Virus record (IMG/VR): IMGVR_UViG_3300032257_000040
Span: 1-40,234 of that record
Length of the DNA: 40,234 bases
From: a virus
Lineage: Duplodnaviria > Caudoviricetes
Reading direction: 5' to 3' (one strand)
Below the pieces are notes generated by a model. That model was not told the origin of the DNA. It searched no databases and saw only the letters and a list, made by a program, of their open reading frames with translations. The position numbers were made by a program, and so were the translations under genes. Positions 2,364 through 36,794 of the stretch are shown piece after piece (the stretch's first letter is position 1; every line of letters starts with the position of its first letter).

Positions 2364-3958
2364 GTCTCCCGCCCGACATATCCAGAGTTAAAGAGTTGGT
2401 CAAGGATAAGACTTGGCGACTCAACAACATGTATTTGATTATCGATGAGGACGGTAATCAGATCCCCTTTCGGATGCGGGAAGAGCAGAAGAATTTTCTC
2501 AAGAAACGACGGAAAAGAAACTTTATTCCAAAGGCTCGGAAATTGGGACTCTCCACAATTATCATTCTCGATAATCTCGATGAGGCTTGCTATCGGAAAG
2601 ATACAAGAGTTGGAATTATTGACCTGACACGCGACGACGCGTACGACAAGCTCGACATTGCGCGTAAAGCCTGGGAGCGTGGAATCTATCATCCTGATCC
2701 AGCCATAGCTGCACTCTGGAAATGGCTACACGAATCAAATCCCCTTGTTGCTGATAACTCGGGTAAAATGGAGTGGGCGAACGGTTCGAACATGTCAGCC
2801 GGAACATCATACACCGGGAAGACTCCGCAACGTCTTCATATTTCAGAGTACGGCCCGATCTCGGCAATCAGTCACGCGAAAGCAACGGCGATCAAGCGGG
2901 GTTCGATCAACTCTGTTCCTCCTGGTGGTATCTGCGACATAGAGACAACAATGGAAGGGGGGCAATTCGGCCCGTGTTATCATTTCTTTTCGCTGTCCAT
3001 GAACAACATCGGAAAGACCGGCCTCACGGACTCCGATTGGTACATGCAGTTTTTCTCATGGCTGAATCATCCTTCCTATCTGATACCAAACGGAAAGCCA
3101 GTAAATCAGGACACGATTGATTATTTCAACGGGATCAAATCGGAACACGGTGTTGAAGTTCCCCTTCCCCGGCAAGCATGGTACGAACGAAAGAAGATAG
3201 AGCAGGGCGAGGACATCTATCAGCAGTTTCCAACGGTGGTAGAGGAATGCGACCGGATGATCGTTCCCGGCCAGATCTATCCCGAGCTAAAGACAGTCAG
3301 GAAAAAAGGCAGGGTTTCGGACTTCTCACCGGAAAAGGGTTTGCCGTGGTTCACGTCGTGGGATTTGGGAAGCTCCGACAATACAGCGGCGTGGTTGATA
3401 CAGCCAGCCGGGAAACAACATTGCTTTTATGCTTGGGCGCAAGGTGAGGGAGAAGGGGCGCAAGGTGTAGCTGAATTGATCCGGGAGTGGGAAAGAGAAT
3501 TCGGAATTACGATTCAGCGGCACTTACTCCCACACGATGCCGAGATACATGATAAAGGATCGGGAAAAACTTACACTGAACAAATCATCGAGGCCGGGAT
3601 ACCTTCAAGTACTATCGTTGTAGTTCCTCGAATCCCCGACGTATGGGTTGGCATCGGTGAAGTTCGATCAATGTTAGAAAATGCGTGGTTCCACCAAGAC
3701 TGCGACCAGAAGACAACCACTGACGATGGAGTCGATCTGCCTTCTGGTGTTCAACTACTCGAAGGGTATAGAAAAAAACTTGATCGATCTACGGGAATTG
3801 TTACCAGTAAACCAGTGCATGATGAGTCGAGCCATATTGCCGACGCGATCAGAACCTACGCAGAGGCTTTATCACGGGACTTAGTTCAGGCTAACGTCCC
3901 AACCAATAAGAGAAACCGCGTCACAGTTAGGCGCGGACATAGTAGAAGAAGAAAATAA
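2360..3958 (+). CDS. terL: terminase large subunit
   Basis: KARKLGLST Walker A variant, LHISE Walker B, WDLG and HIADAIR RNase H-like nuclease motifs. Confidence 0.95.
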   Translation: MSLPPDISRVKELVKDKTWRLNNMYLIIDEDGNQIPFRMREEQKNFLKKRRKRNFIPKARKLGLSTIIILDNLDEACYRKDTRVGIIDLTRDDAYDKLDIARKAWERGIYHPDPAIAALWKWLHESNPLVADNSGKMEWANGSNMSAGTSYTGKTPQRLHISEYGPISAISHAKATAIKRGSINSVPPGGICDIETTMEGGQFGPCYHFFSLSMNNIGKTGLTDSDWYMQFFSWLNHPSYLIPNGKPVNQDTIDYFNGIKSEHGVEVPLPRQAWYERKKIEQGEDIYQQFPTVVEECDRMIVPGQIYPELKTVRKKGRVSDFSPEKGLPWFTSWDLGSSDNTAAWLIQPAGKQHCFYAWAQGEGEGAQGVAELIREWEREFGITIQRHLLPHDAEIHDKGSGKTYTEQIIEAGIPSSTIVVVPRIPDVWVGIGEVRSMLENAWFHQDCDQKTTTDDGVDLPSGVQLLEGYRKKLDRSTGIVTSKPVHDESSHIADAIRTYAEALSRDLVQANVPTNKRNRVTVRRGHSRRRK

Positions 3959-4201: not shown

Positions 4202-4512
4202 AACTATTTGAGAAGGATAGCGAGGATTGCGGAGAAGCAATCAAAGGGAAATTCAGGGAAGCAATCAAAGAAGTTGAAGAGTACATGAAGTCTTTCAGCT
4301 CTTATGACCTGAGCGTATGGCTGAGGAAAGAAGGCGTGGAAATAAGAGAGGCAAACTACAGCGAGTCTGAAATCCTCATGACTTATTCAGAGCTGGCTGA
4401 GGATCTGATTGATATTTGTCCTGAGCGAATCCCTGGAGTGATAGAAGGGCTGAAGGAGTTAGTCTCAAGACTGGAGGAATATGAGAACGCGGCTGAAATC
4501 AAGGATCGATGA
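4198..4512 (+). CDS. hypothetical protein
   Basis: 104 aa acidic ORF, ATGA overlaps on both sides. Confidence 0.7.
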   Translation: MKLFEKDSEDCGEAIKGKFREAIKEVEEYMKSFSSYDLSVWLRKEGVEIREANYSESEILMTYSELAEDLIDICPERIPGVIEGLKELVSRLEEYENAAEIKDR

Positions 4513-5243
4513 AGGACGAAAATCTATTTATCAGCGTGATAGCAGGGGCGCTTATCATCGTCGCGGCATCGTTCGTACCTTCCGCGATATCCCTTTACGA
4601 TTACTGCTTGTCTCTCGGGCATTCTCGAATAGTTGGTATCTGTTTTCCTCTCATTGTTGATCTTGTCGTACTGGTCGGGCATCTCGGGGCAATCTGGCTA
4701 ATCAGCCAGGGCAGAAAACCGACTCGGGCCGTCTTGCTGATCTGGGGAGGCTGTTTAATATCGGTGGCCGGGAATATCCTTCACGCTCCGATTGATCAGG
4801 TTGACGGAATCGCGATCCCATTTTCGGGAATCTCCATGAATCCATCTCAAGTTATCGCGGCTGTTCTCCCTCTCGGGCTGGTCACGGTTTCCAGTTTCCT
4901 ATTTTTCTTGTGGGAAACAAAGATGGAAATAGCGCAAGATTCCGGTCAGGAAATGACGGCAGAAGAGCGGCAAGAAAGAGATAATGAAGCGCATTTAAAC
5001 CAGATGATTTCAGCCGGAATTACGACAGATAAAGCGACAGGAAAGAAGCTGATTCATGCGCCATCGAACAGGGCAACAAGGAAGAAAGCAAAGCGACAAA
5101 GCGAAGCGACAAAGCGACGGAACAAAGTACGTCAAGTTGAGTCAGAAAATCCTGAATTAACGCAACCGGAAAAGGCGAAAAAAGTTGGCTGTTCGGTCAA
5201 GACTTATCAAAGAGACTTGCAATATTTATCCATACAGGGGTGA
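4509..5243 (+). CDS. DUF2637/SpdA-like membrane protein with C-terminal HTH
   Basis: About 4 hydrophobic segments with PLIVD and SVAGNILHA motifs; C-terminal LTQPEKAKKVGCSVKTYQRDL helix-turn-helix. Confidence 0.75.
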   Translation: MKDENLFISVIAGALIIVAASFVPSAISLYDYCLSLGHSRIVGICFPLIVDLVVLVGHLGAIWLISQGRKPTRAVLLIWGGCLISVAGNILHAPIDQVDGIAIPFSGISMNPSQVIAAVLPLGLVTVSSFLFFLWETKMEIAQDSGQEMTAEERQERDNEAHLNQMISAGITTDKATGKKLIHAPSNRATRKKAKRQSEATKRRNKVRQVESENPELTQPEKAKKVGCSVKTYQRDLQYLSIQG

Positions 5244-5624
5244 ACAAAACCACAAATTCTATAAAGCGACAAGCCACTAAAAAATGACACGACAAGAAAG
5301 CGACAAATCAAGGCGACAAATAACGTTGGAAAATCCTCTCTTGCTCCCTTTCCGTCTGGTCTTGAGCGTTTTCACGATGACCGCTCTTGTCGTCGCTTTT
5401 GTCGTAGGTGTTGTCCTAGCTTGTTTGGTTGAAATGTCGCAATTCGTAATAGAAAAATGTCGTAATCAAAAGCGACATTGAAGGCGACAAATGGAAAAAA
5501 GTTTTACGACAATGATTAGGACATTCAAAGCGACAATAAAAACGACAAGATGACACCATTAGGACAAGCCGTCAGAGTCTACGAAACCGAAGATTGTAAC
5601 ACGACATTTTTGCAAGACTTGTCG
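5023..5624. repeat. array of CGACA/TGTCG pentamers (often AAGCGACAA), ~11-13 bp spacing
   Basis: 19 copies counted by eye in ~600 bp, in both orientations. Confidence 0.85.
5284..5481 (+). CDS. possible small membrane protein overlapping the repeat array
   Basis: 65 aa with one hydrophobic stretch; may be a by-product of the repeats. Confidence 0.35.
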   Translation: MTRQESDKSRRQITLENPLLLPFRLVLSVFTMTALVVAFVVGVVLACLVEMSQFVIEKCRNQKRH

Positions 5625-28236: not shown

Positions 28237-28470
28237 TACCAGATAAGTACCAGATTAAAACACTGTATAAAGACCCATTAGGGCTTATTAAGCCTGTATA
28301 GCTATAATTACCTATAAAAACCCTTAAAAATAAGGCGACCCGTACGGGACTCGAACCCGTACGGGTAATTTTTGGGGAAATCGCCGGAAAGCCTTATAGA
28401 TAAAGGGATTGCGGGTTTTTTCAGGGTTGATTATCAAGCGGGATAATGACACTCTACCAGATAAGTACCA
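28237..28470. mobile_element. attP: attP: tRNA (probably Glu) 3' fragment core with arm-type repeats
   Basis: Minus strand 28334-28360 reads ACGGGTTCGAGTCCCGTACGGGTCGCC (T-arm plus acceptor 3' strand). An 11-bp inverted repeat surrounds the 7-nt T-loop. TACCAGATAAGTACCA occurs at 28237-28252 and 28455-28470. Confidence 0.88.
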
Positions 28471-28513: not shown

Positions 28514-29647
28514 ATGAAACCAAAACTAAAAACGATCTGTATCGCGCTATCGCTTCTCTGTGGTGTCGCTCACTCTGCAACATATCCAGCCTGGGGTGCA
28601 GATTCCAATTATCTGGATAAGGTGAAAAGCTTCGACCGATCCGCGAAGAGGCTCGATCTTTCCAAGAGAATGGTTTCTCGGACTGCACAAGTCGGTGGTG
28701 TATTTGTCGGGGAAGTTGACAAGAAGGAATGGAGATTACTCACAAAGAAACTGGTGCGGATCAAATCTGCTCATCCAATGACGCCTATCGTGTTTGATGT
28801 TTCGGCAAAAAATAATCGAGATAAAAAAGTACTGAACTGGAAAAAATCATACATTCGAAGGAATCAAGATCGATTCGTTTACGCTGTAAATCCGAAATCC
28901 AGCCGAGCATTGAAAACGCAGTATTCCAAAATCGTTAAAGCCAACGGGCAAGACATCACTGTCTCCACTTTCAATTACCGAGCTGATCGACGGTTAGATT
29001 TGTATCACCCGAAAAAATTCAACGGGAAAACTTTCGTGTATTTCCATGCCGGGGGATGGTCGGGCGGATCTTTCAGGCAGTCGATTTTCAGGAACATCGT
29101 AGCGCACTTCGCTAGGAACGGGTACCAGTCCGTAATCGTAGAATACGCAGTCTCGAAAAGGCAGATCGACGCAACTCCTTTTGATTCTTTGGCCGATGCA
29201 AAAAGCGCGGTAAGGTGGGTAAAATCTAGACTCAATACGGACCGCTTGATTATTTGCGGATCATCGGCCGGGGGGCATCTCTCGCTTGCCATGCTTTACA
29301 GCAACCCAGAAAAATACAATCACCCGGAAGATGATTTATCGATTGATACGATTCCTGATGAAATCTGGGCGTACTTTCCTGTTCTGGATAACGGGCCGAA
29401 TGGGTACGGCTCTGATCGAGTCGGGGAAGAGTACCCTGATTTTTCGCCGCTCCACTGGTTGCGGGATTCAGGTGATCCCAGAATCACGAACGCAAGCACT
29501 CGGGTTATTCTCCATGCGTCTCCGAATGATGAAGTTGCGTCAATCCATCCAGTCAGGGAATTTAACGCAATCAACGGAAACTCTCGGCTTGTTGAGTATC
29601 CCGGAAGAACCCATCTTCAATGTCCTAGCCCTATCTTTTATCGGTGA
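28514..29647 (+). CDS. secreted alpha/beta-hydrolase (esterase, HSL/BD-FAE-like)
   Basis: Signal peptide; HAGGWSGGS oxyanion loop, GSSAGG nucleophile elbow, late D (NDEV) and H (GRTH). Confidence 0.88.
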   Translation: MKPKLKTICIALSLLCGVAHSATYPAWGADSNYLDKVKSFDRSAKRLDLSKRMVSRTAQVGGVFVGEVDKKEWRLLTKKLVRIKSAHPMTPIVFDVSAKNNRDKKVLNWKKSYIRRNQDRFVYAVNPKSSRALKTQYSKIVKANGQDITVSTFNYRADRRLDLYHPKKFNGKTFVYFHAGGWSGGSFRQSIFRNIVAHFARNGYQSVIVEYAVSKRQIDATPFDSLADAKSAVRWVKSRLNTDRLIICGSSAGGHLSLAMLYSNPEKYNHPEDDLSIDTIPDEIWAYFPVLDNGPNGYGSDRVGEEYPDFSPLHWLRDSGDPRITNASTRVILHASPNDEVASIHPVREFNAINGNSRLVEYPGRTHLQCPSPIFYR

Positions 29648-29721: not shown

Positions 29722-29970
29722 ATGAGCGACGATAGGAAAAGAGAATATTCAAAATGCGGGTTTAAACTCGATGACTATGTAGCTCATTCGTCTGTTACTG
29801 AAAAAACCATTGGTGGAAGTGACGAGATCGTGGGGTTCACTCATGGAGGACACTTGATATTGCAGGGTTATGGTGACTCTACAATTAAAACCGTAATCCC
29901 TCAGTCGGTACGGAAGGTGGACTTCCCGCCAAAACCGCTACCGGAGATCAGATACGGAAAAACTTTCTAG
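29722..29970 (+). CDS. hypothetical protein (possible degenerate oldest cassette)
   Basis: 82 aa; stop abuts the first attC-like site. Confidence 0.65.
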   Translation: MSDDRKREYSKCGFKLDDYVAHSSVTEKTIGGSDEIVGFTHGGHLILQGYGDSTIKTVIPQSVRKVDFPPKPLPEIRYGKTF

Positions 29971-30086
29971 CACAACGCTTGAGTCCTGGTAGCGGGGCGG
30001 AAACAATTGATAATATGGAAAACGAACAAATTACGAACGACACGGAACACACAGTTGAACCGCTTACCAGCGACGACTTGGCAGGA
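29970..30086 (-). mobile_element. attC-like site 1 (outer GTT box damaged)
   Basis: GCACAAC-GCTTGA-GTCCTGGTAGCGG ... CCGC(T)TACCAG(C)GAC-GACTT-GGCAGG. Confidence 0.75.
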
Positions 30087-30089
30087 TGA
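30015..30089 (+). CDS. 24-aa leader peptide starting in attC1 loop
   Basis: MENEQITNDTEHTVEPLTSDDLAG; TGA overlaps ATG 30086. Confidence 0.5.
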   Translation: MENEQITNDTEHTVEPLTSDDLAG

Positions 30090-30415
30090 GCGATTCAATC
30101 GAATATTGTAAAGACTGCCCAGCCAATGTCGGATGTCACTTGGCTAGGAAATGCTTGGAGCTGGAAACTGAAGATGTCGCCCTTGATGTGCCGCGTCTTG
30201 TCCGGGAGGAGATAGCCAAGTTGCAAACGGGAACACTGGTAATCGTTGGTTGGCATGGATCGGAGAGGCACAAGCACGGATATACTGTCAGGAACGATTT
30301 GGGAGTGCAGGATCTGTATCATCGAGGTGATTGTGTGAGCGTGAAAAACCTATTGGATGGAACCCACGATGTATTTCTGGCTAACGACCAAGTTCTGACG
30401 CAGCCAAAACCTTGA
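30086..30415 (+). CDS. cassette gene, hypothetical
   Basis: 109 aa; reads into attC2 (LANDQVLTQPKP). Confidence 0.7.
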   Translation: MSDSIEYCKDCPANVGCHLARKCLELETEDVALDVPRLVREEIAKLQTGTLVIVGWHGSERHKHGYTVRNDLGVQDLYHRGDCVSVKNLLDGTHDVFLANDQVLTQPKP

Positions 30416-30506
30416 AACTTTATGAAAACTGAAACCGCCGAAATAGTAGAAGTGTCACCGGAGCCAATGGGCGTGGCGGCTGTCGCTCAGCAACGCCTTG
30501 TTCGTC
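30379..30506 (-). mobile_element. attC-like site 2
   Basis: GGCTAAC-GACCAA-GTTCTGA-CG-CAGCC ... GGCTG(T)CG(C)TCAG(C)AAC-GCCTT-GTTCGTC. Confidence 0.85.
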
Positions 30507-30760
30507 TTGGTGTTTGGCTGAGAAACCTCCGAGCATGGAAGACCGCACGGGCAAACCGTGACCTACAGCGAGCGATGCAGAAAGACCCCGACTTCGCGCA
30601 TGTGTGGCAATGCAATATCGCCATGCCAATCCTCGACGGAGCGAATGGGAAACTGACACCCGAAGAGGCGAACGAGATCGCAGACCGACTCATGGCGCAC
30701 CTCTTCAATGTGAAGACGAACGATAGAGGACAGGCACGGAGCGAAGCGGAGTTGTCCTGA
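30422..30760 (+). CDS. cassette gene, conserved phage protein (AMQKDPDFA..WQCNIAM motif)
   Basis: 112 aa; ATG inside the attC2 loop, stop inside attC3. Confidence 0.8.
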   Translation: MKTETAEIVEVSPEPMGVAAVAQQRLVRLGVWLRNLRAWKTARANRDLQRAMQKDPDFAHVWQCNIAMPILDGANGKLTPEEANEIADRLMAHLFNVKTNDRGQARSEAELS

Positions 30761-30775
30761 TCCGTCTTGTTATCC
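30715..30775 (-). mobile_element. attC-like site 3 (short, 61 bp)
   Basis: GACGAAC-GATAGA-GGACAGG-CA-C ..GCGAAGC.. G(T)TG(T)CCTG(A)TCC-GTCTT-GTTATCC. Confidence 0.85.
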
Positions 30776-30786
30776 AATTTGAATTT

Positions 30787-30963
30787 ATGAAAAAGAAGAC
30801 CAGACAAATTATTCACCACCTCATTTATTGGTATCTAAGAAAGTCCGGTGGGGCATTTCACACGAAACCGTATGGACCTAAAGGAAGGTATATCGTCTTG
30901 ATGAATGAGGATCAATATAGTCGATTCGAGGCGACCAGAACTCGACCAAGCATTTTAGGATAA
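30787..30963 (+). CDS. cassette gene, 58-aa basic hypothetical protein
   Basis: MKKKTRQIIHHLIYWYLRKSGGAFH...; fills the cassette; TAA is part of the GGATAAC box; below the ORF-track length cutoff. Confidence 0.75.
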   Translation: MKKKTRQIIHHLIYWYLRKSGGAFHTKPYGPKGRYIVLMNEDQYSRFEATRTRPSILG

Positions 30964-31030
30964 CGAAAAAAGTGATGACAGATAAAATGACCAGCGGGAA
31001 TGAATCTTGCTCATCCACGACTTGTTCTGC
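30958..31030 (-). mobile_element. attC-like site 4
   Basis: GGATAAC-GAAAAAA-GTGATGA-CA-GA ... TC(T)TG(C)TCAT(C)CAC-GACTT-GTTCTGC. Confidence 0.82.
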
Positions 31031-31232
31031 TTGGGAGATGCAGGAACCGGGATGGTGGACCCTCGATAAAGTTGGGGGAGTTGTAAAGGAACACAATAAT
31101 CGGTGGGGGGCATATCGTTGGAACAAGGACCAAGAAAGCCCAGTTCGGAATTTCCCAACACTGTCCAAAGCAAAAGAATTTTTAGAGCAGAACGCCAAAG
31201 GTGACTCAGGAGCACCGAACGAAAAGATATGA
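30972..31232 (+). CDS. cassette gene, Trp-rich hypothetical protein
   Basis: 86 aa; start within attC4, stop within attC5 loop overlapping the next ATG. Confidence 0.72.
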   Translation: MMTDKMTSGNESCSSTTCSAWEMQEPGWWTLDKVGGVVKEHNNRWGAYRWNKDQESPVRNFPTLSKAKEFLEQNAKGDSGAPNEKI

Positions 31233-31285
31233 ATACAGAAAAAAACTCTCCAGAGGTGGTCCTTGAGTCCACCGTCTTGTTATGC
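31187..31285 (-). mobile_element. attC-like site 5
   Basis: GCAGAAC-GCCAAA-GGTGACT-CA-GGA-G-CACC ... GGTG-G-TCC(T)TG-AGTC(C)ACC-GTCTT-GTTATGC. Confidence 0.88.
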
Positions 31286-31507
31286 GAATGCGAAGGACCG
31301 GGGCATATCTGCAAGCATTGCGACGACCGTCTGGAGAAATCCGGTTATTACGAGGATATAAAGGCCGAGGATGAAGAGAGATTATCAACGCGCCTACAAG
31401 AATTGGCATGGACGGATGGTCCATTAACCAATGATCAAAAAATTGAACTGATTGAGATTCGATCACTGTTAGAAGATATACATCATCCAGAATTATCTAA
31501 AGCATAA
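31229..31507 (+). CDS. cassette gene, small Cys-containing (CEC..CKHC) protein
   Basis: 92 aa; ATG in attC5 loop; TAA within the GCATAAC box. Confidence 0.75.
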   Translation: MNTEKNSPEVVLESTVLLCECEGPGHICKHCDDRLEKSGYYEDIKAEDEERLSTRLQELAWTDGPLTNDQKIELIEIRSLLEDIHHPELSKA

Positions 31508-31620
31508 CGACAATAGCACAGGCAGGACGGGCGAAACGATATGAAGCAGGAAAACCAATCAGATAGGATACAGTCGGAAACTCAAGAGGGTACGTCCTTG
31601 CCTGCTGCGTCTTGTTATGT
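31502..31620 (-). mobile_element. attC-like site 6
   Basis: GCATAAC-GACAATA-GCACAGG-CA-GGACG ... CGTCC(T)TG-CCTG(C)TGC-GTCTT-GTTATGT. Confidence 0.88.
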
Positions 31621-31627
31621 CTTATGA
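31541..31627 (+). CDS. 28-aa leader peptide starting in attC6 loop, coupled to MTase
   Basis: MKQENQSDRIQSETQEGTSLPAASCYVL; TGA 31625-31627 overlaps ATG 31624. Confidence 0.5.
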   Translation: MKQENQSDRIQSETQEGTSLPAASCYVL

Positions 31628-32385
31628 GGTATTCGGGCGGCAAAGCAAGGCAAGCGTCAAGCATTGCCAAGATTCTGAATGGATACTCCAAAAAGAATCA
31701 ACCCTACCTTGAACCGTTCTGCGGAATGTTCTCGGTTGGGTCTCTTGTCGCAAATCAAGTTAGGCATGGATCGGACATTGATTCGGATGTGGTCGCACTG
31801 TTGGAGGAAGTGAGAGACGGTTGGGAACCACCTGACGAGGTAACGGAAAATGACTACAATATGTGGAAAGATGATCCATCGCTGATAGAACCACGAATGA
31901 GGGCATTTGTAGGATTCGGGTGCTCCTTTGGGGGGAATAAGTGGGGTAAATATGCGAAAGATAACGCAGGAGACAGGAATTATGCTCTGAATGCGAAGAG
32001 ATCGTTGATTAAGCATTCCAAAAACCTAAAAGGAGCATCGTTTCGCGTATGCTCGTATGACGACTGGAATCCGTCTGGAATGTTGATCTACTGTGATCCG
32101 CCATACACAAACACAACTTCTGATTCGGTCCCCGGATTGTATCACTTCAACCCATTCGACTTTTGGGATTTGTGCCGCTACTGGGCAAAATCAAATATCG
32201 TTTTTGCATCGGAACGAATGTTCCCGACTCAGCACACTGAAATTGTTTCGGAGTGGGACAGACAGAAGGCGAGTAGCGAATCAAAAAAAGGAATGCTGGA
32301 AAGACTCGTCAGAGTTCATCCACGAAAAATAACCAGAAAACCATCTCAGATCGAAGTTGAACAACTTCTTTTATTCGAGACATAA
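31624..32385 (+). CDS. DNA adenine methyltransferase (Dam/D12 class), carried as a cassette
   Basis: MRYSGGK, YLEPFCG (SAM binding), IYCDPPY (catalytic); TAA within the ACATAAC box. Confidence 0.9.
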   Translation: MRYSGGKARQASSIAKILNGYSKKNQPYLEPFCGMFSVGSLVANQVRHGSDIDSDVVALLEEVRDGWEPPDEVTENDYNMWKDDPSLIEPRMRAFVGFGCSFGGNKWGKYAKDNAGDRNYALNAKRSLIKHSKNLKGASFRVCSYDDWNPSGMLIYCDPPYTNTTSDSVPGLYHFNPFDFWDLCRYWAKSNIVFASERMFPTQHTEIVSEWDRQKASSESKKGMLERLVRVHPRKITRKPSQIEVEQLLLFET

Positions 32386-32491
32386 CAGTGTTAATATGTC
32401 AGACGAATCCGCATAACTCATTGATGCGCAACTGGCAATATTTTCCATAACAAAAGTGATACTGTCAGACGGTTTGAAAAAACCACATAAC
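32380..32491 (-). mobile_element. attI-like terminal site of the cassette array
   Basis: ACATAAC box with no hairpin partner; imperfect direct repeat CATAACAGTGTTAATATGTCAGACG (32381) / CATAACAAAAGTGATACTGTCAGACG (32446); CATAAC also at 32412 and 32486. Confidence 0.6.
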
Positions 32492-32501
32492 GCTTTATAT
32501 T
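32474..32501 (+). promoter_or_regulatory. candidate sigma70 promoter for integrase
   Basis: TTGAAA-16 nt-TATATT, 5 nt before ATG 32507 (leaderless). Confidence 0.4.
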
Positions 32502-32506
32502 CAAGA

Positions 32507-33664
32507 ATGAAACAGGGTATAGGCTCGCGGAAGAAAACAAGCGTTACGGTAGCAAAGTGGAAGCACCCGACGTTTAAATATCGCGTTTCGTGGATTCAGG
32601 GGGGGAATGCGCGCGATAAAGGATTTCACAGGAAAAAAGACGCGGAAGCCTGGGCGGAAGAAAAAGAGGCTGAATTACTCGCTTTTGGTCCGTTATCTGA
32701 TTTAACGCATGATGAGCGCTCTACAGTGATCGACACCCGAGCGGATCTTTCACGGGCAGATATGACGCTTAGAAACGCGGTCAATATTGCGCTGGATCGT
32801 CACGCGAAAGAATCGGTTTCAGACGTGCCTGTTTCTGACTTGATCCAGATCGTTCTCAGGGATCGCGAAAAGGCCGGGAGATCGGAACGGTACTTGCAGG
32901 ATATTCAATCGAGATCAAAACCGTTTGAATCTGCTTTCGGTTCGCGGCTGGTTTCCTCCATCGAGCGATCCGAGATTGAAACCTGGCTCGACTCGCTCGG
33001 AGTCGCACCCAGAACCAGAAACAATTATCTCAATACTGTTCGATTGCTTTTCAATGACGCGGTTTCCCGGAAACTCTGCGATGAAAACCCGGCAACAGAA
33101 ATTACGGAATCGAAAATCATTCAGAAAGAGGCAGGGATTTTTACACCGGAGCAAATGACGGAATTTATCAAAGTTGTGGATTCGTCCCTACTTCCTGCTG
33201 TTCTTCTGTCTGGATTCGCTGGAATCAGGCGCGAGGAAGTTTCAAAGCTACGATGGAATGCCGTAAACATGGCACAGAAAACAATCTACATTTCCGCCGA
33301 AATCGCCAAACTTGGAAAGATCCGGTATGTTCCCATTGAAGACAATCTTTTAGAGTGGCTGACGCCCTACGCTGATCTTACCGGCCCGATTTGGCCTCCA
33401 GACGGAGACGGCAAGCTGTCACGGGCTAGGGCGGCTTTGAAGAAGAAAGGACACGACACCCCAGAGAATGCCTTGAGGCACTCATACGGCTCGTATCACC
33501 TCGCAGAATGGAACGACATAAACCAGACTGCACAAAATATGGGGAACTCTCCTAAGATGATTCTGGAAAGCTATCGAAAAGCCGTACCGAAATCCGTGGC
33601 AAGTGCTTACTGGTCGATTTCACCAGATCCGGGGAACGTTGTAAGATTCGAGAAAGTGTCCTAA
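32507..33664 (+). CDS. int: tyrosine integrase with N-terminal arm-binding domain
   Basis: GIRREE (R), AKLGK (K), NALRHSY, MGNS, ESY; N-terminal KYRVSW...F..KKDAEAW. ORF track starts at GTG 32456; ATG 32507 is more likely. Confidence 0.93.
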   Translation: MKQGIGSRKKTSVTVAKWKHPTFKYRVSWIQGGNARDKGFHRKKDAEAWAEEKEAELLAFGPLSDLTHDERSTVIDTRADLSRADMTLRNAVNIALDRHAKESVSDVPVSDLIQIVLRDREKAGRSERYLQDIQSRSKPFESAFGSRLVSSIERSEIETWLDSLGVAPRTRNNYLNTVRLLFNDAVSRKLCDENPATEITESKIIQKEAGIFTPEQMTEFIKVVDSSLLPAVLLSGFAGIRREEVSKLRWNAVNMAQKTIYISAEIAKLGKIRYVPIEDNLLEWLTPYADLTGPIWPPDGDGKLSRARAALKKKGHDTPENALRHSYGSYHLAEWNDINQTAQNMGNSPKMILESYRKAVPKSVASAYWSISPDPGNVVRFEKVS

Positions 33665-35391: not shown

Positions 35392-36156
35392 ATGTCTACT
35401 ACTAAAGCAAATACAGAAATCGTCGAAACTAAATCGACACCAAAACCGAAGGACTTAAAAAGCCTTATCAATAGCGGCGCAGTCAAAAACCAAATCGCTC
35501 GCGCTCTACCTAAACACATGACGCCAGATCGTTTTCTGCGTGTCGTCACAACTACCTTGCTACGCACCCCGAAACTCGCGGACTGTTCGCAAGAATCAGT
35601 TATTAAAGCAATGCTTGATTGTTCCTCGCTCGGGTTGGAACCGGACGGGCGACGATGCCACCTAATCCCCTACGGGAAAGAATGCCAACTCATCGTTGAC
35701 TACAAAGGATTGATCGAGCTGGCGAAGCGATCCGGGGAAGTCTCCACGTGGAAAGCCGAGACGGTCAAAACTAACGATCTGTTCGCATGGCGCAACGGTG
35801 AGATTGATCACGAGATCGATTTTCGCACTGATCGCGGAGATTTGGAATGTGTTTATTCAGTGGTTAAAACTAAAGACGGCGAACTCGATTACGAGATCAT
35901 GACGCTTTCCGAAGTCGAATCGATCCGATCAAGAAGCAAAGCAGGGAAAGCCGGGCCTTGGGTGACTGACTTCGAAGAGATGGCAAAGAAAACCGTGATT
36001 CGTCGCCATAGTAAGCGCCTCACTCTTTCGCCTGAATTCCATAACGCAACCGAGATTGACGCTGATCAATTGGAGATTCGCGACGTAACACCCAAAGCAA
36101 CGCGGAAGGAAATCGCTCCCACCGAAAACCCTTTTGAGTTGGAGGGTGCAGAATGA
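35392..36156 (+). CDS. recT: RecT single-strand annealing protein
   Basis: ALPKHMTPDRFLR, LGLEPD, YKGLIELAKRSG, GPWVTDFEEMAKKTVIRR. Confidence 0.96.
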   Translation: MSTTKANTEIVETKSTPKPKDLKSLINSGAVKNQIARALPKHMTPDRFLRVVTTTLLRTPKLADCSQESVIKAMLDCSSLGLEPDGRRCHLIPYGKECQLIVDYKGLIELAKRSGEVSTWKAETVKTNDLFAWRNGEIDHEIDFRTDRGDLECVYSVVKTKDGELDYEIMTLSEVESIRSRSKAGKAGPWVTDFEEMAKKTVIRRHSKRLTLSPEFHNATEIDADQLEIRDVTPKATRKEIAPTENPFELEGAE

Positions 36157-36794
36157 GTTTTACAGACTGCGAAATCATCGATTGCGAACAGCGCTCCCCG
36201 GAATGGTTCGAGGCTCGAAAAGGAATTCTGACAGCTTCGGAATTCGGCCCATGGCTTTTGAAGAGTGACAAGACAAGCGGCAAGGCTCGCGAGACTGCGA
36301 TTTGTAAACTCGTGGCTCGAACTGCTGACGCCTGGGAACCTTCATTTTTCGAAAACGAAGCAATGAAGCGCGGGACCGAGTTGGAACCGGAGGCATTGAA
36401 GGCATTTCAGGAAGGAACCGGGAAGAAAGTCAAGGAGGTAGGTTTTTGCAGATCTGTTTACGGGCTTTTCGGATGCTCCCCGGACGGTCTTCTAATTCGG
36501 TCCAATACAGGCTACGAAAACAAAGCGCCGATTCCCTCGACACATATCAAATATCGTCGGGCCGGAACTCTGCCCGATGAATACAAATGGCAGGTTCTCG
36601 GCTCGATGGCAGTCACCGGGGCGAAGGCGTGGTGGTTTCAATCCTACAATCCCGGCCTGGCACCTTTGCGAATCCTGATCGAGCGCAACGATGAAGTGGA
36701 AGCACTGAAAGCTGCTCTAATCGAATTTTCCAGCCAACTAAAGGAAGCCTTGAGAGAGGAAGCCGAAGCGTGGCGGAAAGAATACCAGAAATAA
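36153..36794 (+). CDS. YqaJ/lambda-type exonuclease
   Basis: QRSPEWFEARKGILTAS, GCSPDGL, ENKAP, YKWQV. Confidence 0.94.
   Translation: MSFTDCEIIDCEQRSPEWFEARKGILTASEFGPWLLKSDKTSGKARETAICKLVARTADAWEPSFFENEAMKRGTELEPEALKAFQEGTGKKVKEVGFCRSVYGLFGCSPDGLLIRSNTGYENKAPIPSTHIKYRRAGTLPDEYKWQVLGSMAVTGAKAWWFQSYNPGLAPLRILIERNDEVEALKAALIEFSSQLKEALREEAEAWRKEYQK

Follow-up and report, generated by a model that had tools for sequence, protein, structure and literature searches.

A probable integron-type array with reversed genes in a temperate phage

Clusters of attC sites lacking an integron integrase (CALINs) have been described in phages, often together with DNA methyltransferase genes, and the available text of that report states that the integron integrase IntI1 recombined five of six tested phage sites, with a preference for the bottom strand (Qi et al. 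2023, PMC9892861). Here, we analyzed an array of attC-type sites in IMGVR_UViG_3300032257_000040, a whole virus record of 40,234 bp from a temperate phage (hereafter the window, meaning this entire stretch of DNA). As in the phage CALINs described in that text, an attC cluster without an integron integrase (no IntI was found in the whole 40,234-bp record) stands together with a DNA methyltransferase gene, and five intact sites lie within 1.25 kb, the definition of a phage CALIN being at least two attC within 3 kb and no IntI. The TJE1 array tested in the same study is canonical, unlike the window: in our scan, three sites give the bottom-strand reading on the strand that does not encode the genes. 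Reversed genes, starts within sites, or a phage IntI facing such an array are not described in the available text of PMC9892861, and our search of the literature on phage, reversed or translated attC and on cassette origin, which covered few subscription papers, found no description of reversed cassettes with in-site starts. Hence, as far as that text goes, phage attC clusters recombined by IntI1 are already known (PMC9892861), and no published gene reversal was found. One record listed as a CALIN by Qi et al. (L515, MW202573) shows the bottom-strand reading on the coding strand at 2069-2132 and 3670-3738, with neighboring proteins ending in PNV.

In class 1 integrons, a short open reading frame (ORF) in attC or attI aids translation and was proposed to prevent formation of the mRNA hairpin and to allow termination-reinitiation (Jacquier 2009, as summarized in the review PMC8876359). 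Leaders at two window sites (sites 1 and 6, below) fit this termination-reinitiation scheme as the review presents it. In the class 1 case transcription is of the top strand and the ORF encodes a peptide of its own, whereas in the window the bottom strand is transcribed and a site usually encodes the N terminus of its own gene plus the C terminus of the neighbor's. Synthetic attC sites embedded in proteins demonstrate that a functional attC can at the same time serve as a reading frame (Nivina et al. 2020, PMC7439510); according to the accessible part of that paper these were designed and lack start/stop coupling, while the window sites are natural. The "reverse" integrons of Spirochaetota (10.1101/2022.02.06.479319) have in common with the window an orientation change in an integron, but there, in the portion available, intI is turned relative to the array, whereas in the window type the genes are turned relative to attC, and intI, attI and attC keep their classical arrangement. 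With the sedentary integrons of Akkermansiaceae, the window shares box geometry, a G after the AAC of R', matching cassette ends, an attI-like end reading ACT/GTT, and an extra L-box base, which is C on the bottom strand in 48/56 bacterial sites of this family. It differs from them in that its genes follow attC on the bottom strand and that starts and stops lie inside the site; in bacteria, 37 of 41 cassette genes have their start no more than 30 nt past the site before them.

We consider it probable that the window carries an integron-type array with reversed genes, composed of attC-then-gene units that recombine on the coding strand, enter at a downstream attI-like site, and have their sites read by ribosomes. 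Each mobile unit would consist of an attC site and then its gene, and recombination would likely occur on the folded coding strand at the left-hand AAC, with an integron integrase likely supplied by the host or by a co-infecting phage. The attI-like site at the downstream end would be the entry point of new units, which would come last in the transcript; the decayed site 1 may be the oldest. Ribosomes likely read the site, so that an incoming gene would stop beside the next gene's start, and ordinary phage genes may have become cassettes by losing their own ends to the attC scaffold. With less assurance, we lean toward a wider proposal: a phage-side branch of integrons with mirror-image cassettes, attC acting as a stop/start joint with a fixed Asn frame at the crossover, IntI and attI of their own in many phages and a borrowed IntI in others, any cassette pluggable behind any other, and repeated independent cassette birth. 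Strand choice at attC is taken to serve the landing of genes facing the integron promoter; reversed arrays would keep this chemistry and flip the genes, giving phages a cassette pool readable by their own transcription and silent in a bacterial array.

Site geometry and cassette polarity

Sites were sought with a pattern of AAC, a long spacer and a 7-nt L box, followed farther on by an 8-nt L box (one extra base), a 5-nt spacer and GTT. Within 29900-31700, the scan returned five plus-strand sites with the geometry of an attC bottom strand (500 shuffles: mean 0.01, maximum 1) and none in the mirror geometry; an additional match at 36-148 looks like chance. The proposal of a first-pass annotation of this DNA, that the sites on the coding strand read as the bottom strand of attC, was thus confirmed. 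Five of the six sites it had counted are intact (sites 2-6), and site 1 is regarded as decayed because its right-hand GTT is missing despite paired L boxes, a defect on which the annotation was silent. The sites are:

29970..30086, plus strand: site 1, a decayed attC whose L boxes still pair 7/7 but whose right-hand GTT is gone; missed by the strict scan and the most distant from the attI-like end
30379..30506, plus strand: site 2, intact attC in bottom-strand reading (geometry scan)
30715..30775, plus strand: site 3, a short intact attC, 61 nt long, that contains no start (geometry scan)
30958..31030, plus strand: site 4, intact attC (73 nt; geometry scan)
31187..31285, plus strand: site 5, intact attC (99 nt; geometry scan); the best-folding site, z -2.1 on the plus strand
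31502..31620, plus strand: site 6, intact attC (119 nt; geometry scan)

Sites 2-6 have the features expected of attC, namely L boxes that pair 7/7, unequal spacers (long spacers of 6, 6, 7, 6 and 7 nt versus the 5-nt short spacer), and an extrahelical base on the R''-L'' arm (the extra base of the 8-nt L box, in turn C, A, C, C and C); both ends carry AAC/GTT core boxes. The same geometry is seen in the attC aadA7 bottom strand, as published in a primer table. A G follows AAC in all six window sites, as described for the R' box in the accessible text of Bouvier et al. 2009 (PMC2727003). The signal of these sites is box geometry, not stability. A generic repeat search of the window did not detect the six sites, which have too little sequence in common, and site 2 is kept at 91%-95% identity in six matches, among the matches listed.

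In each of sites 2-6, the right-hand 7-mer and the last 7-mer of the site's own cassette are perfect reverse complements (for site 6, the methyltransferase end at 32380-32386). R'' and R' thus agree 7/7 in cassettes 2-6; in cassette 1 they do not. The cassettes carry the following genes:

30086..30415, plus strand: gene of cassette 1 (29976-30384), 109 amino acids; translates the following AAC as Asn and terminates in the site 2 loop, 6 nt before ATG 30422
30422..30760, plus strand: gene of cassette 2 (30385-30720), 112 amino acids; starts in the site 2 loop and stops inside site 3
30787..30963, plus strand: gene of cassette 3 (30721-30963), 58 amino acids, PHROG 25292; starts after its site, with the stop TAA in the terminal R box
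30975..31232, plus strand: gene of cassette 4 (30964-31192); the start is either 30975 in the L box or 30987 in the loop, and the end is an ATGA that overlaps ATG 31229 within site 5
31229..31507, plus strand: gene of cassette 5 (31193-31507), 92 amino acids; starts in the loop, with no in-frame ATG after the site
31624..32385, plus strand: gene of cassette 6 (31508-32385), a D12-class adenine DNA methyltransferase (PF02086); start after the site

No Pfam family was found for the genes of cassettes 1-5, and gene 30086 had no relatives among six candidates except itself. Cassette 2 occurs at 83%-92% identity in nine other loci, in six contexts. In seven aligned copies, similarity runs from the left AAC to the next AAC, and the right-hand box travels with the gene. 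Since the junctions of cassette 2 fall at AAC triplets, these alignments indicate that the mobile unit is a site plus its downstream gene and that the left AAC is the crossover box, as on the bottom strand of attC, the exact crossover bond not being readable from an invariant triplet. A contig from another study breaks at 30383. In a canonical cassette, the gene lies on the top strand, upstream of its attC; the window genes lie on the bottom-reading strand, downstream of the site. One 151-nt contig from another study joins a site-5-like loop and right arm (31213-31282) at the GTT box to a different gene body; this single contig also has two compensating 1-nt indels in the leader.

Loci for comparison were gathered with patterns built on the window sites plus one gene family, and therefore show the design to be common without giving its frequency; L151, apparently the window's own record, was excluded from all counts, and the sensitivity of the scan was such that the published P12002L sites were not recovered. 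The same site family adjoins a true IntI in Akkermansiaceae chromosomes (IntI over the cut-off in 88/201 genomes). Cassettes were obtained from 21 of 47 bacterial loci (55 cassettes) and from 91 of 406 viral/metagenome loci (221 cassettes). Matching cassette ends were seen in 242/316 adjacent site pairs in cassette-bearing loci, which were selected for at least one such pair.

Gene orientation was assigned by a composition score, which replaced an open-frame test that was noisy in GC-rich loci. The gene was placed on the top strand in 42 of 55 bacterial cassettes (7 bottom, 6 unclear) and on the bottom strand in 182 of 209 viral/metagenome cassettes (8 top, 19 unclear; 12 short ones set aside). 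Counted per locus, the top/bottom/unclear numbers were 18/1/2 for bacteria versus 1/82/7 for viruses, and the cruder open-frame test pointed in the same direction (bottom/top/unclear, 62/19/51 for viral versus 3/48/4 for bacterial cassettes). Cassette polarity in the viral/metagenome loci is, by this score, opposite to that in bacterial arrays of the same site family, and this control, together with the junction mapping of cassette 2, bears out the earlier claim that the window genes are inverted relative to attC. One bacterial array (L207:5-577) contains two near-identical 315-nt cassettes without a clear top-strand gene, and in an Akkermansiaceae integron (L148:2175-3325) intI and the cassette genes point the same way.

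Several observations weigh against the array as proposed. Two of the long spacers measure 7 nt; whole-site DNA folding is mostly unremarkable against shuffles (z from -2.1 to +0.5) and does not separate the strands; the surveyed loci include near-duplicates and are not independent lineages; and no cassette joints occurred in the source run's contigs, which cannot show absence. A blastn search with the array gave no match in cultured phages, and single-protein locus searches with the methyltransferase and the integrase gave none in viral contigs. The weak folding scores would suit an array that is a relic, or that is shuffled by RecET-type phage recombination at repeated arms, in which case the attC features would be inherited and the sites would now be mere gene spacers. 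RecT and RecE-like genes are present (35392-36794), site 1 is decayed and the genome has no IntI, all of which agree with such a history. However, the six sites are too dissimilar to register as repeats, junctions fall at AAC rather than at shared arms, and a perfect 7-nt end match is kept in 5/5 intact cassettes. We regard a relic or RecET-shuffled array as improbable.

Translation across the sites and the birth of cassettes

ATG 30422, the candidates GTG 30972, ATG 30975 and ATG 30987, and ATG 31229 lie inside sites and in frame with the genes, and the right-hand GTT is read through in a different frame in each of the peptides QQRLVR, STTCSA and STVLLC, as the first-pass annotation had reported. 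Its accompanying claim, that translation starts inside the attC loop, is supported by comparison with relatives for genes 30422, 30975/30987 and 31229, with the provisos that two of the three candidates at site 4 lie in the stem (L box), not the loop, and that the gene after site 3 has its start at 30787, 11 nt past the site. A start-context matrix built from 41 other window genes, with 549 non-start ATGs for ranking, placed ATG 30015 at the 99.8th percentile, 30422 at the 100th, 30975 at the 99.6th, 30987 at the 90.7th and 31229 at the 94.5th; the context of ATG 31541 is ordinary (57.9th percentile).

For gene 30422, the next in-frame ATG after the site is at residue 52, past the conserved stretch, and plain homologs begin a few residues ahead of the conserved WLRN stretch. 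Relatives of the cassette 4 gene keep a Trp upstream of internal Met 31038, the position at which the database gene call P0142 begins; gene callers would miss the N termini of such genes. The methyltransferase start was placed after the site because a Y-x-G-G-K motif keeps the same distance from Met1 in 111/119 homologs. Among viral cassettes with one clear frame, an in-site ATG opens into the gene in 56/101 compared with 32/202 for the other frames (P = 3e-12), and 34 of these 56 cassettes lack a further ATG within 60 nt. Each of the three frames is used in crossing the right GTT (18, 21 and 17 cassettes). The bacterial control has no excess of in-frame in-site ATGs (7/41 versus 11/82). Genes 30422, 30975/30987 and 31229 thus likely use in-site starts.

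Coupling of stops to starts points the same way. The 3' ends of 101 viral genes read the next AAC in the Asn frame (59), end in TAA in the box (16), or stop earlier (26), and none uses another frame, which statistically suggests a frame rule: a gene that enters the following site either translates AAC as Asn or terminates with TAA at the box. The first stop of the Asn frame falls within -15 to +4 of the loop ATG in 36/54 sites, compared with 16/108 for the other frames (P = 6e-11), and 24 of these 36 stops overlap or abut the ATG. The corresponding offsets at window sites 2, 4, 5 and 6 are -9, -4, +1 and +1, and three window sites hold the stop of the preceding gene. Each site would then likely be a joint that delivers the ribosome finishing the upstream cassette to the start of the next gene by translational coupling, a natural counterpart of the coding attC sites that had previously only been designed. 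A top-strand mirror of this coupling was not found in bacterial sites, in which 5/45 have a loop ATG of good context and none is coupled to the next gene. Short A/C-rich ORFs occur on the transcribed (top) strand of some bacterial attC loops (L264, L270, L286) and look like the leaders that phages carry on the opposite strand.

Two leaders begin in loops and end on a downstream start:

30015..30089, plus strand: loop ORF, 24 amino acids; ends in ATGA on ATG 30086; start context at the 99.8th percentile
31541..31627, plus strand: loop ORF, 28 amino acids; terminates in an ATGA shared with ATG 31624; the Asn-frame stop of site 6 overlaps its start ATG; weak start context

Both leader peptides and their ATGA overlaps, proposed earlier, are present; the arrangement is uncommon in relatives (4/36 after-site starters), and the ordinary context of ATG 31541 tells against the second. 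The predicted mRNA stems of the sites range from -10 to -35 kcal/mol, and predicted exposure is 0.58-0.87 for the loop ATGs of sites 2, 5 and 6 versus 0.43 for ATG 31624. Read-through of a site might keep the mRNA hairpin open, for which class 1 integrons offer a precedent (PMC8876359).

Other results argue against a general role of in-site starts. No in-frame ATG exists in the site for 45/101 clear viral cassettes; only 3/6 window genes start inside their site; and sites 1 and 3 lack stop/start coupling (offsets -35 and -29). Variable columns by codon position number 4/5/7 in the leader versus 15/10/46 in the body, with leader amino acids not conserved, and a fixed reading frame per arm type was not detected (14/45 pairs of similar right arms, null 14.5). 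Because the peptide is not conserved and the arms have no fixed frame, the leader, by these comparisons, behaves as a tolerated spacer. The loop ATGs might be a by-product of A-rich loops, with the real starts downstream of the sites. Downstream starts do hold for genes 30787 and 31624 and probably for 30086, and the beginning of P0142 at Met 31038, the weak ATG 31541 and the unconserved leader peptides fit as well. Applied to genes 30422 and 31229, however, this explanation would cost conserved sequence or leave no ATG, and it does not account for the frame enrichment (56/101 versus 32/202) or the coupling at 36/54 sites; we consider it very improbable.

The idea that attC doubles as a portable initiation module needs correcting. 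The in-site starts are supported, but a site travels with its own downstream gene as one cassette, so that shuffling does not pass the start between genes: the start stays with its own gene, and the neighbor receives a stop codon.

The body of gene 30422 was found with the site 2 leader, with at least four other, unrelated attC leaders whose end boxes differ, and also as a plain gene that has a Met and a stop of its own; the gene of cassette 4 shows the same spread. In the captured forms, native start and stop are lost and those of the sites are used. These forms suggest a direction from plain gene to cassette. One gene would thus be seen before and after several separate captures, and cassette origin would become testable. 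In another phage (L159:1154-2600), the cassette 2 gene body (83% identical) lacks attC and still ends in GAAC. Small genes there are separated by five copies of a GGAG(G/A)ACAAC repeat that overlap stops and starts, possibly a second modular system.

The attI-like terminus and the source of the integrase

The array ends in the following feature:

32380..32400, minus strand: terminal R box and attI-like site, AACACT/GTT on the minus strand; ACT/GTT occurs at bacterial and viral array ends

This terminus matches the attI of the host family over 6 nt before GTT at the one predicted position. ACT/GTT is present at 10/15 bacterial array ends, several with the same preceding bases, and at 11/61 viral ends. 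Two points detract from its use as an entry site: 50/61 viral ends lack ACT/GTT (20 of them possibly missed attC arms), and chance alone would give about one copy of the 8-mer ACACTGTT per window, so that only its position carries weight. The low viral count would be expected if the cassettes were real and had no fixed docking site, host IntI dropping them at secondary GWT (attG-type) sites or beside existing attC, with reversed ones surviving because only they are phage-transcribed. Cassette 2 precedes non-attC sequence in two loci (L154 and L153), and attG insertion requires only GWT according to the accessible text of 10.1101/2022.09.11.507474. Set against this are the 6-nt attI match at the predicted position and relatives with IntI directly behind such a terminus, and we judge docking at secondary sites unlikely compared with entry at the attI-like site.

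Wherever a viral locus has an IntI-like gene (11/11), the reversed array precedes it on the same strand; a terminus was found in 10 of these 11, 42-218 nt before the IntI match (ACT/GTT in 7). Seven of 10 related records tested, 9 of which were chosen for having an IntI-like gene, exceed the IntI cut-off of TIGR02249. The seven phage records, each with this IntI downstream of a reversed array, are L007 (G203), L013 (G204), L102 (G205), L460, L457, L343 and L329 (the latter four covering G403-G406); most carry ACT/GTT between array and IntI, and the completeness of G203, G403 and G404 is rated 94%-100%. Because array, terminus and IntI over the cut-off occur together in phage records, complete reversed integrons exist in phages, as judged from sequence. 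The window phage most likely borrows its IntI.

A scan for a Pc-type promoter gave 12 promoter-like matches versus 8.4 +/- 3.0 in shuffles; such a promoter would be antisense to the window genes. The 76 nt at 32380-32455 hold three of the nine GTTATG present on the whole minus strand, which could represent additional attI integrase boxes or remnants of junctions. A seventh, decayed attC could account for an imperfect hairpin at about 32393-32441.

The phage, its likely host and its own integrase

The cassette array is located between the likely attP and the integrase gene of the phage:

28335..28366, minus strand: likely attP core, matching the tRNA-Glu 3' end in Verrucomicrobiales; the site on which the integrase of this phage would act, apart from the cassette system
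32456..33664, plus strand: tyrosine integrase, phage type, not IntI; occupies the place where relatives have IntI

Given this position just behind the array, the tyrosine integrase encoded by the phage itself might be thought to recombine the cassettes. The protein scores 39 bits against TIGR02249 (cut-off 265) and lacks the IntI insertion. It aligns with Akkermansiaceae prophage integrases, 4/12 of which adjoin a tRNA gene, and the phage has the likely tRNA-Glu attP for it to act on; we consider a role in cassette recombination very unlikely.

Integrases of Akkermansia phages are the nearest cultured-phage relatives of the window integrase, and relatives are present in 16/201 Akkermansiaceae genomes. 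A 25-nt stretch near 28335-28359 was matched in 63/251 Verrucomicrobiales genomes (at most one mismatch; reversed control, 0), and tRNA-Glu was the matched locus in 8/8 loci checked. Since the integrase relatives lie in Akkermansia phages and Akkermansiaceae and the tRNA-Glu match extends across that order, the host is probably a member of Verrucomicrobiales. The phage encodes a terminase, head-tail adaptor, major head and tail proteins, endolysin, integrase, repressor, RecT/RecE and a DnaC-like protein. Between attP and the array lies an alpha/beta-hydrolase (esterase-like) gene with a likely signal peptide (28514-29647), a candidate lysogenic-conversion gene. Short direct repeats with 13-nt spacing, for which we have no explanation, occur at 5091-5132 and 5298-5326, near the end of gene 4509-5243.

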